From NCBI RefSeq assembly GCF_003334315.1, contig NZ_QOWR01000058.1: DNA of 29,058 nt. One strand, 5' to 3'. A program made the translations under genes and the position numbers. Positions 10,660-11,024 of this stretch are shown piece after piece (the first letter of the stretch is position 1; each line of letters begins with the position of its first letter). This stretch comes from Escherichia coli (lineage in GTDB: Bacteria; Pseudomonadota; Gammaproteobacteria; Enterobacterales; Enterobacteriaceae). A model generated the notes under the pieces. The model did not search any database. It saw nothing but the letters and a program-made list of their open reading frames with translations, and had not been told where the DNA came from.

Positions 10660-10674
10660 TAGTTTAAGTTTCAC

Positions 10675-10988
10675 CTGCACTGTAGACCGGATAAGGCATT
10701 ATCGCCTTCTCCGGCAATTGAAGCCTGATGCGACGCTGACGCGTCTTATCAGGCCTACGGGACCACCAATGTAGGTCGGATAAGGCGCTAGCGCCGCATC
10801 CGACAAGCGATGCCTGATGTGACGGTTAACGTGTCTTATCAGGCCTACGGGGACCACCAATGTAGGTCGGATAAGGCGCAAGCGCCGCATCCGACAAGCG
10901 ATGCCTGATGTGACGTTTAACGTGTCTTATCAGGCCTACGGGTGACCGACAATGCCCGGAAGCGATACGAAATATTCGGTCTACGGTT
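10675..10988. repeat. Tandem BIME array: about 2.5 copies of a ~90-bp unit built from paired REP palindromes
   Basis: The unit (gaccaccaatgtaggtcggataaggcg...gcgccgcatccgacaagcgatgcctgatgtgacg.ttaacgtgtcttatcaggcctacgg) recurs with a period of about 90-91 bp, with only a few substitutions between copies. Read by eye. Confidence 0.75.
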
Positions 10989-11024
10989 TAAAAGATAACG
11001 ATTACTGAAGGATGGACAGAACAC

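Follow-up and report, generated by a model that had tools for sequence, protein, structure and literature searches.

Anatomy of the sucB-sucC spacer

In the window, the whole stretch of 29,058 nucleotides of Escherichia coli DNA analyzed here, sucB and sucC lie on the plus strand and are separated by 365 bp, the length already given in the initial annotation. sucB closes with a TAG stop codon at 10657-10659, and the REP array that occupies most of the spacer is entirely extragenic, between that stop and the sucC start at 11025. The features of the locus are as follows.

9442-10659, plus strand: sucB (odhB) coding sequence, from the open reading frame list and the odhB annotation in identical RefSeq loci
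10660-11024, plus strand: sucB-sucC intercistronic spacer, 365 bp, delimited by the sucB end and the sucC start
10679-10693, plus strand: left arm of an outer stem (ACTGTAGACCGGATA), pairing with 10973-10987 in the MFE fold
10682-10716, plus strand: y REP of unit 1, 35 nt, a variant with 5' GTAGACC (pattern match; hairpin of -16.4 kcal/mol, z = -3.98)
10723-10758, minus strand: z2 iREP of unit 1, 36 nt, plus-strand end CTAC (pattern match; hairpin of -21.4 kcal/mol)
10771-10805, plus strand: y REP of unit 2, 35 nt (GTAGGTCGGATAAGG...), T at 10789 (pattern match, fold)
10771-10861, plus strand: the additional 91-bp unit, absent from K-12 (allele alignment; register ambiguous)
10812-10848, minus strand: z2 iREP of unit 2, 37 nt, G at 10825 (pattern match, fold)
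10862-10896, plus strand: y REP of unit 3, 35 nt, A at 10880, the state common to the K-12 unit (pattern match, fold)
10903-10939, minus strand: z2 iREP of unit 3, 37 nt, T at 10916 (pattern match, fold)
10953-10984, minus strand: possible decayed y iREP closing the array, 32 nt (alignment and fold; weak)
10973-10987, plus strand: right arm of the outer stem, its core CGGTCTACGG present in all alleles (MFE folds, allele alignment)
10988-11024, plus strand: 3' segment of the spacer, including the ribosome-binding region of sucC (AAGGATGG), invariant in the allele alignment
11025-12191, plus strand: sucC coding sequence, start codon ATG at 11025 (open reading frame list, RefSeq annotation)

Tandem Repeats Finder returned a single array in the spacer (10681-10954; period 91, 3.0 copies, 87% matches, score 385), and a repeat search placed three in-register copies 89-91 bp apart. 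The period agrees with the unit of about 90 bp proposed in the initial annotation. That annotation had also counted about 2.5 near-identical tandem copies: the copies are in tandem, their number is three, and near-identity holds for units 2 and 3 but not for unit 1. Units 2 and 3 (10759-10849 and 10850-10940) are 98% identical, with 2 mismatches in 91 positions, whereas the diverged unit 1 has 73 of 91 aligned positions in common with unit 2 (about 80% identity to units 2 and 3). The differences that tell units 2 and 3 apart are T/A at 10789/10880, G/T at 10825/10916, and one G in the preceding linker.

Within each unit, a y REP is followed across a 6-nt linker by an inverted z2 REP, and a linker of 12-13 nt comes last, so that the array reads y(+) z2(-) y(+) z2(-) y(+) z2(-). 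The paired REP palindromes recognized at the outset are thus six in number and alternate in type. Matches to the REP patterns in the window numbered five and one, with 0.00 expected in shuffles. A REP is an imperfect palindrome of 20-40 nt with GTAG ahead of it, or CTAC behind it when inverted. All three y REPs are 35 nt long and carry GTAG at the 5' end, and all three z2 iREPs, of 36-37 nt, carry CTAC at the 3' end. Folded as RNA, the six elements gave stem-loops of -15.2 to -21.4 kcal/mol (z of -4.0 to -6.7 versus shuffles), each with an internal loop in the stem, in keeping with the conserved mismatch or bulge typical of REP stems. The element that may close the array at 10953-10984 agrees in 26 of 35 positions with the first y REP taken in reverse complement and forms no hairpin by itself (-3.2 kcal/mol, z = +0.59); it was excluded from the REP count.

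Type lengths are 35 nt for y, 29 nt for z1, and 37 nt for z2 (PMC8266576), and in BIME-2 elements y REPs alternate with z2 REPs of opposite orientation, the linkers are short, and several copies stand in tandem (PMC3333891). The sucB-sucC array is a BIME-2-type array of three units, an assignment made by REP types and linker length only. It is by these two properties that it is placed in BIME-2 rather than among the "atypical BIMEs" of the Bachellier classification. BIME-1 elements (y plus z1, a long L linker with an IHF site, single copy) likewise have REPs in inverse orientation; here, in contrast, a z2 partner of 36-37 nt stands in place of the 29-nt z1, linkers of 6 and 12-13 nt lack the L motif, and the element is repeated three times in tandem.

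The Rfam family RF02564 (naRNA4) matched units 2 and 3, at 10774-10845 with 59.5 bits and at 10865-10936 with 59.8 bits (gathering threshold, 59.5), and unit 1 fell below that threshold. Such a match recognizes the structure of a y/z2 pair only and is no statement on nucleoid function. The array from which the family derives, REP325 in yjdM-yjdN, also consists of alternating tandem y/z2 hairpins between co-oriented genes of one operon. It differs from the array described here in having 12 hairpins instead of 6, in its linker sequences, and in that unit 1 of the window lies below the Rfam threshold.

The array is bracketed by the outer stem, whose left-arm core CTGTAGACCG was found by folds and by allele alignment in every allele, including one of 93 bp that has no BIME (see below). 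Downstream, 10988-11024 is identical in 14 aligned E. coli and E. albertii alleles, apart from one base in O157:H16. Spot 42 and GcvB are reported to target the sucC translation-initiation region, which lies at this end. A consensus scan found no promoter-like or intrinsic-terminator-like site inside the BIME array. The sole terminator-like match, at 10642-10662, is a weak hairpin with a T-rich tail over the sucB stop codon, and such matches are not commoner there than in shuffles.

Spacer alleles among complete E. coli genomes

The distribution of spacer alleles was determined in 5,426 complete RefSeq E. coli genomes. The majority state, which the reading of the window array as "expanded" had overlooked, is a spacer of 93 bp without any BIME: it is carried by 3,401 genomes (62.7%), among them O157:H7, Nissle 1917, and O104:H4, and contains one hairpin, GTAGACCGAC-N11-GTCGGTCTAC. 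A BIME allele of any kind is present in 2,019 of the 5,426 (37.2%). The three-unit allele of the window type accounts for about 1,053 genomes (19%; 1,047 at 98.7% identity to the junction query and 6 exact), the two-unit allele on the window haplotype for 581 (11%), and divergent BIME alleles of two or three units, unmatched by the junction query, for about 383 (7%). Examples of the divergent group are the three-unit alleles of APEC37 and ES5, the two-unit alleles of SW071620 and S1-ESP-03-A, and an allele of 261 bp with a truncated second z2.

The two- and three-unit classes were separated with a 77-nt junction query running from z2 through the linker into y, with identity bands verified on known alleles; the coverage of a whole-locus BLAST search is blind to the difference, since overlapping pieces fill the query in both cases. 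The three-unit count agrees with 2,019 − 959, the difference given by a two-unit query. Alleles of four units were sought with a junction query from unit 3 to unit 3, which gave the six exact matches counted above; the two of these that were fetched are three-unit SNP variants with 365-bp spacers, in which T at 10825 is the sole difference from the window. None appeared in the spread samples, in which rare four-unit alleles could be missed.

Over 765 nt, 100% identity to the window was seen in many genomes, with humans, pigs, chickens, dogs, and a pangolin as their sources, and carriers of the three-unit allele come from many hosts and countries. With about 1,053 carriers, many of them identical to the window, the 365-bp spacer is a common natural allele and part of a standing length polymorphism of E. 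coli. It is the length neither of MG1655 (274 bp) nor of most E. coli genomes; about 19% of all those examined carry this three-unit allele.

The exact K-12 allele was found in about 440 genomes among the two-unit carriers. Because the band at ≥99% identity of this query is contaminated by short perfect REP matches elsewhere, only evenly spaced rows were used to sample it. Laboratory K-12 derivatives made up 9 of the 10 rows sampled, or 8 of the 9 distinct genomes: ER1709 (twice), AML002, AML003, XL1-Blue, MC4100, MG1655, a CV601 derivative, and DCM272.

The K-12 reference is therefore unrepresentative at this locus: about 63% of the genomes lack a BIME, and the three-unit allele is commoner than that of K-12. 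With at least four length classes (93, 261, 274, and 365 bp), the spacer could be typed by a single PCR, which supports the use for strain typing suggested in the initial annotation.

In the 93-bp allele, taken from the O157:H7 locus (201-293 of the retrieved sequence), the hairpin has a 15-bp stem, with -24.8 kcal/mol for the whole spacer, and the bases of its outer arms are those that stand on either side of the BIME array in the window (equivalent to 10679-10987). The interiors are unrelated, comprising 13 nt in the 93-bp allele and 26 corresponding nt in the BIME allele. This indicates that the two classes are not one simple insertion or deletion apart. A simple deletion between two GACCG repeats, leading from the BIME allele to the 93-bp allele, was considered and rejected on the same grounds.

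Relationship between the window and K-12 alleles

In MG1655 (NC_000913.3), sucB ends at 762739 and sucC starts at 763014, leaving a spacer of 274 bp (762740-763013). This length, one unit short of the window, had been given in the initial annotation and was borne out by the alignment, in which the window spacer is the MG1655 spacer plus one 91-bp unit. Seen from the other side, the K-12 spacer is that of the window minus 91 bp, with the breakpoint somewhere from the linker at about 10762 to 10788. The K-12 site, the "REP-stabilizer" of Khemici and Carpousis (2004), is the same locus on the same haplotype: unit 1, the right end, and the sequence of the y/z2 unit are shared, and the window differs in having one more 91-bp unit and hence six REPs against the four of K-12. 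Comparison of the window with K-12 MC4100 and O157:H16 98-3133 over 1,700 nt on each side of the spacer gave 0 differences, and the 29-kb window as a whole is 99.83–99.93% identical to MG1655. Since the flanks of the window and K-12 alleles are identical, the change in length is young relative to the divergence of haplotypes.

The direction of this change was approached through the two variable sites. Units 2 and 3 of the window have the states (T,G) and (A,T), and the single repeat unit of K-12 is (A,T), identical to unit 3 at both sites. The two-unit alleles of O157:H16 98-3133 and strain 914033 have a unit with the state (T,T). This state appears to be a chimera of the 5' side of unit 2 and the 3' side of unit 3, as expected from an in-register exchange between the variable sites, and (A,T) would be the product expected of an exchange upstream of 10789. 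At the first variable site all divergent alleles have T, which indicates that the A at 10880, common to K-12 and unit 3, is derived.

From these patterns we infer that, for the haplotype common to K-12 and the window, the three-unit allele is probably the older one and that the two-unit alleles arose by at least two independent losses. The polarity is read from two informative sites by parsimony. The K-12 allele would then most likely be a secondary contraction, by unequal recombination or slippage, a reading that follows from the identical flanks, the derived base held in common with unit 3, and the chimeric units of other two-unit strains. Where the spacer holds a BIME, of two units (261 or 274 bp) or of three (365 bp), copy number would shift when nearly identical units recombine unequally, in register, or slip during replication; the remaining spacers (93 bp) have no BIME.

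The initial annotation had instead proposed a recent duplication in the window genome, in which a two-unit spacer like that of K-12 gained one unit by slippage or unequal recombination. We regard such a gain as unlikely, although several observations agree with it: units 2 and 3, at 98% identity, have states in common, such as GTGACG.TTAACGTG, that the divergent alleles lack, and the flanks identical to K-12 make the length change young relative to haplotype divergence. However, duplication of the K-12 unit should give identical copies, and the two units differ at two sites and by the junction G. To arrive at the window allele, one site would have to revert to T, another substitution to occur, and a G to be inserted, all within an array whose flanks show 0 differences over about 3.4 kb. 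The ancestral T is retained in unit 2 and missing from the K-12 unit, the second two-unit allele is the unit-2/unit-3 chimera described above, and the pattern of a K-12 unit with the unit-3 base at both variable sites favors loss in the two-unit strains. The frequencies weigh in the same direction, as about 1,053 of the 5,426 genomes have the three-unit allele and the exact K-12 allele is seen almost only in laboratory K-12. The deeper history may still have involved a (T,T) two-unit ancestor that was duplicated and then mutated, but even under this scheme the (A,T) unit standing alone in K-12 calls for either a secondary loss or a mutation in parallel.

Because units 2 and 3 share states not present in other haplotypes, duplication or homogenization must have acted on the window haplotype after its split from them. 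In the three-unit alleles of APEC37 and ES5, the units are closer to each other than to the window units and have their own shared linker variants, and duplication or gene conversion therefore seems to act at sucB-sucC there as well. Such a history is concerted evolution, as expected for tandem arrays.

Contraction through exchange between near-identical units was also weighed against a role of TnpA-REP, the REP-associated tyrosine transposase (RAYT), which would change the copy number by cleavage and strand transfer at the feet of the REPs. The TnpA-REP of K-12 cleaves and recombines BIMEs in vitro, and models of BIME amplification based on it, with whole BIME units added or excised, have been proposed (PMC3333891). 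The GTAG tetranucleotides needed for recognition by this enzyme are intact in the three y REPs. On the other hand, the inferred deletion breakpoints differ, lying upstream of 10789 in K-12 and between the two variable sites in O157:H16 and 914033; breakpoints in different intervals are what homology-guided in-register exchange, which acts at arbitrary positions, would leave. There is also no tnpA-REP gene within the window. We regard the involvement of the transposase as unlikely.

BIME copy-number polymorphism among E. coli strains was reportedly described by Bachellier and colleagues in 1997. The tandem BIME copies of a given locus show good sequence conservation but differ in number from one E. 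coli strain to another (Ton-Hoang et al. 2012, PMC3333891), and the sucB-sucC case differs from this published polymorphism in nothing of kind. The finding is already known biology, to which the present work adds a census of one locus and the proposed contraction in K-12; its significance is small, that of a clean, well-counted example of strain-variable BIME-2 unit number.

The site in E. albertii and other Enterobacteriaceae

E. albertii NBRC 107761 carries a two-unit allele of 261 bp with a truncated second z2 (1861-2121 of the retrieved locus), and nearly the same allele is present in E. coli 3-72 and O2:H6 PG20180057. The E. coli carriers of this allele are a few strains from the mouse gut, with flanks otherwise like those of B2-type strains such as Nissle. 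As E. albertii and E. coli have almost one allele, the BIME-filled alleles appear to be either old or exchanged between species, and the 261-bp form may represent a trans-species polymorphism or a transfer between the two species.

The matches listed for this locus include E. albertii and many other genera; E. fergusonii, Salmonella, and the cryptic Escherichia clades are not among them. Among the matches listed, the other genera of Enterobacteriaceae have spacers of 82–133 bp with one hairpin in the same place, after a conserved CACCTG. The hairpins of several of these genera, again among the matches listed, are REP-like, with GTAGGCC or GCCGGATG motifs. This suggests that a REP-type hairpin at the sucB-sucC site may predate the genus Escherichia.

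Possible role of the array in the suc transcript

The array sits between the two arms of a predicted hairpin kept by all alleles and is presumably transcribed, as sense strand, within the polycistronic sdhCDAB-sucABCD mRNA. In this position its stable REP hairpins would block 3'-to-5' exonucleases and protect the upstream sucAB message, and they would probably also attenuate part of the read-through into sucCD, as in other y/z2 arrays. The net effect would be a sucAB:sucCD output biased toward sucAB. The most likely function of the array is therefore that of a barrier to 3' exonucleases combined with partial attenuation, favoring sucAB over sucCD, a role suggested by a decay intermediate known from K-12, by the behavior of REP325, and by raised expression ratios of gene pairs with REPs.

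For K-12, the legend to S9 Fig of PMC4372235 reports that a decay intermediate from the sucB-sucC REP element accumulates in rhlB (ΔrhlB) pcnB mutants and serves as a reporter of degradosome activity, citing Khemici and Carpousis (2004). Intermediates that end in a REP and depend on RhlB, PNPase, and poly(A) polymerase for their removal are the mark of a REP-stabilizer (Newbury/Higgins; Khemici and Carpousis). The K-12 finding lends published support to the remarks on mRNA stability and operon segmentation in the initial annotation, which are reasonable for the locus; any effect of three as against two units would be an extrapolation from them. REP325, itself a y/z2 array, acts as a partial Rho-dependent terminator and stabilizes the upstream message (bioRxiv 10.64898/2026.03.23.713779). 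Tandem gene pairs with a REP have raised ratios of upstream to downstream expression, with wide dependence on context, and half-lives are not uniformly changed by REPs (bioRxiv 10.64898/2026.03.23.713779). As the array contains no intrinsic-terminator-like site, attenuation at sucB-sucC would have to be Rho dependent or based on pausing.

Taken as a whole, the reading of the locus as an ordinary three-unit BIME-2-type array, which belongs to a standing length polymorphism, was contracted in K-12, and serves as an mRNA barrier and attenuator, is in our judgment probably correct. Studies in which the sucB-sucC "REP-stabilizer" reports on the degradosome concern an allele that a minority of genomes carry. 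It is a more speculative idea, and one that we hold doubtful, that the natural series of 0, 2, and 3 units quantitatively sets the SucAB:SucCD ratio through graded mRNA stabilization and Rho-dependent attenuation within this operon of the TCA cycle. The K-12 reference would then have a lineage-specific contracted allele, and most E. coli would run the operon without a REP barrier. Tuning of sucAB against sucCD by unit number would be a small natural case of regulatory variation with promoter and coding sequences unchanged.

A function outside the mRNA has also to be weighed, in which the units act mainly as naRNA4-like nucleoid RNAs or as DNA gyrase or cruciform sites that organize the chromosome. 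Espeli and Boccard reportedly described BIME-2 arrays as gyrase targets in 1997, and units 2 and 3 reach the naRNA4 gathering score. That match means y/z2 REP pairs and no more, and REP325/naRNA4 gave no measurable nucleoid compaction and no long-range REP-REP contacts (bioRxiv 10.64898/2026.03.23.713779). Moreover, with 63% of E. coli genomes devoid of the array, it is not structurally essential at sucB-sucC. We therefore give this possibility little credence and favor the role in the mRNA. That the extra unit is a mis-assembled short tandem repeat, as draft assemblies can produce by mis-counting, has a negligible probability, given an array of only 273 bp, three units told apart by SNPs, and an identical 365-bp spacer in over a thousand independently finished genomes.

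Other features of the window

A second BIME lies in the sdhB-sucA spacer (6326-6625), with REPs at 6333-6364 (minus strand), 6372-6401 (plus strand), and 6422-6446 (minus strand) that correspond to a z2, a y, and a short z1-like REP; naRNA4 matched it strongly (6332-6402, minus strand, 88 bits). The alignment of the window with MG1655 over 205-10862 has one gap only, and two of the mismatches were located, at 4930 and 6528.

Positions 1-204 are the end of an IS1 copy, whose minus strand encodes the N terminus of InsA (NCBIfam match to the IS1 zinc-binding domain). The element is joined to ybgD at 204/205, and the alignment with K-12 begins at 205. This junction was present in none of the 5,426 complete E. 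coli genomes, and consequently the insertion is private to this strain, unless its source is an organism outside that collection, such as a Shigella.

Toward the other end of the window, dense tandem repeats of 12 to 78 nt cover 24740-25230, where MG1655 annotates tolA; we take them to be the alanine/lysine-rich coding region of TolA. At 27500-27638, the Rfam model of the CpoB/ybgF intercistronic RNA thermometer matched over its full length (142 bits). Both look like expected features of the region. At 28931-28981, 51 nt separate the second tRNA-Lys from the second tRNA-Val (lysW-valZ in K-12), versus 149 in MG1655; the neighboring lysT-valT spacer gives an Rfam match to RtT RNA (28572-28740). 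The 98-nt difference looks like another repeat-mediated length polymorphism.
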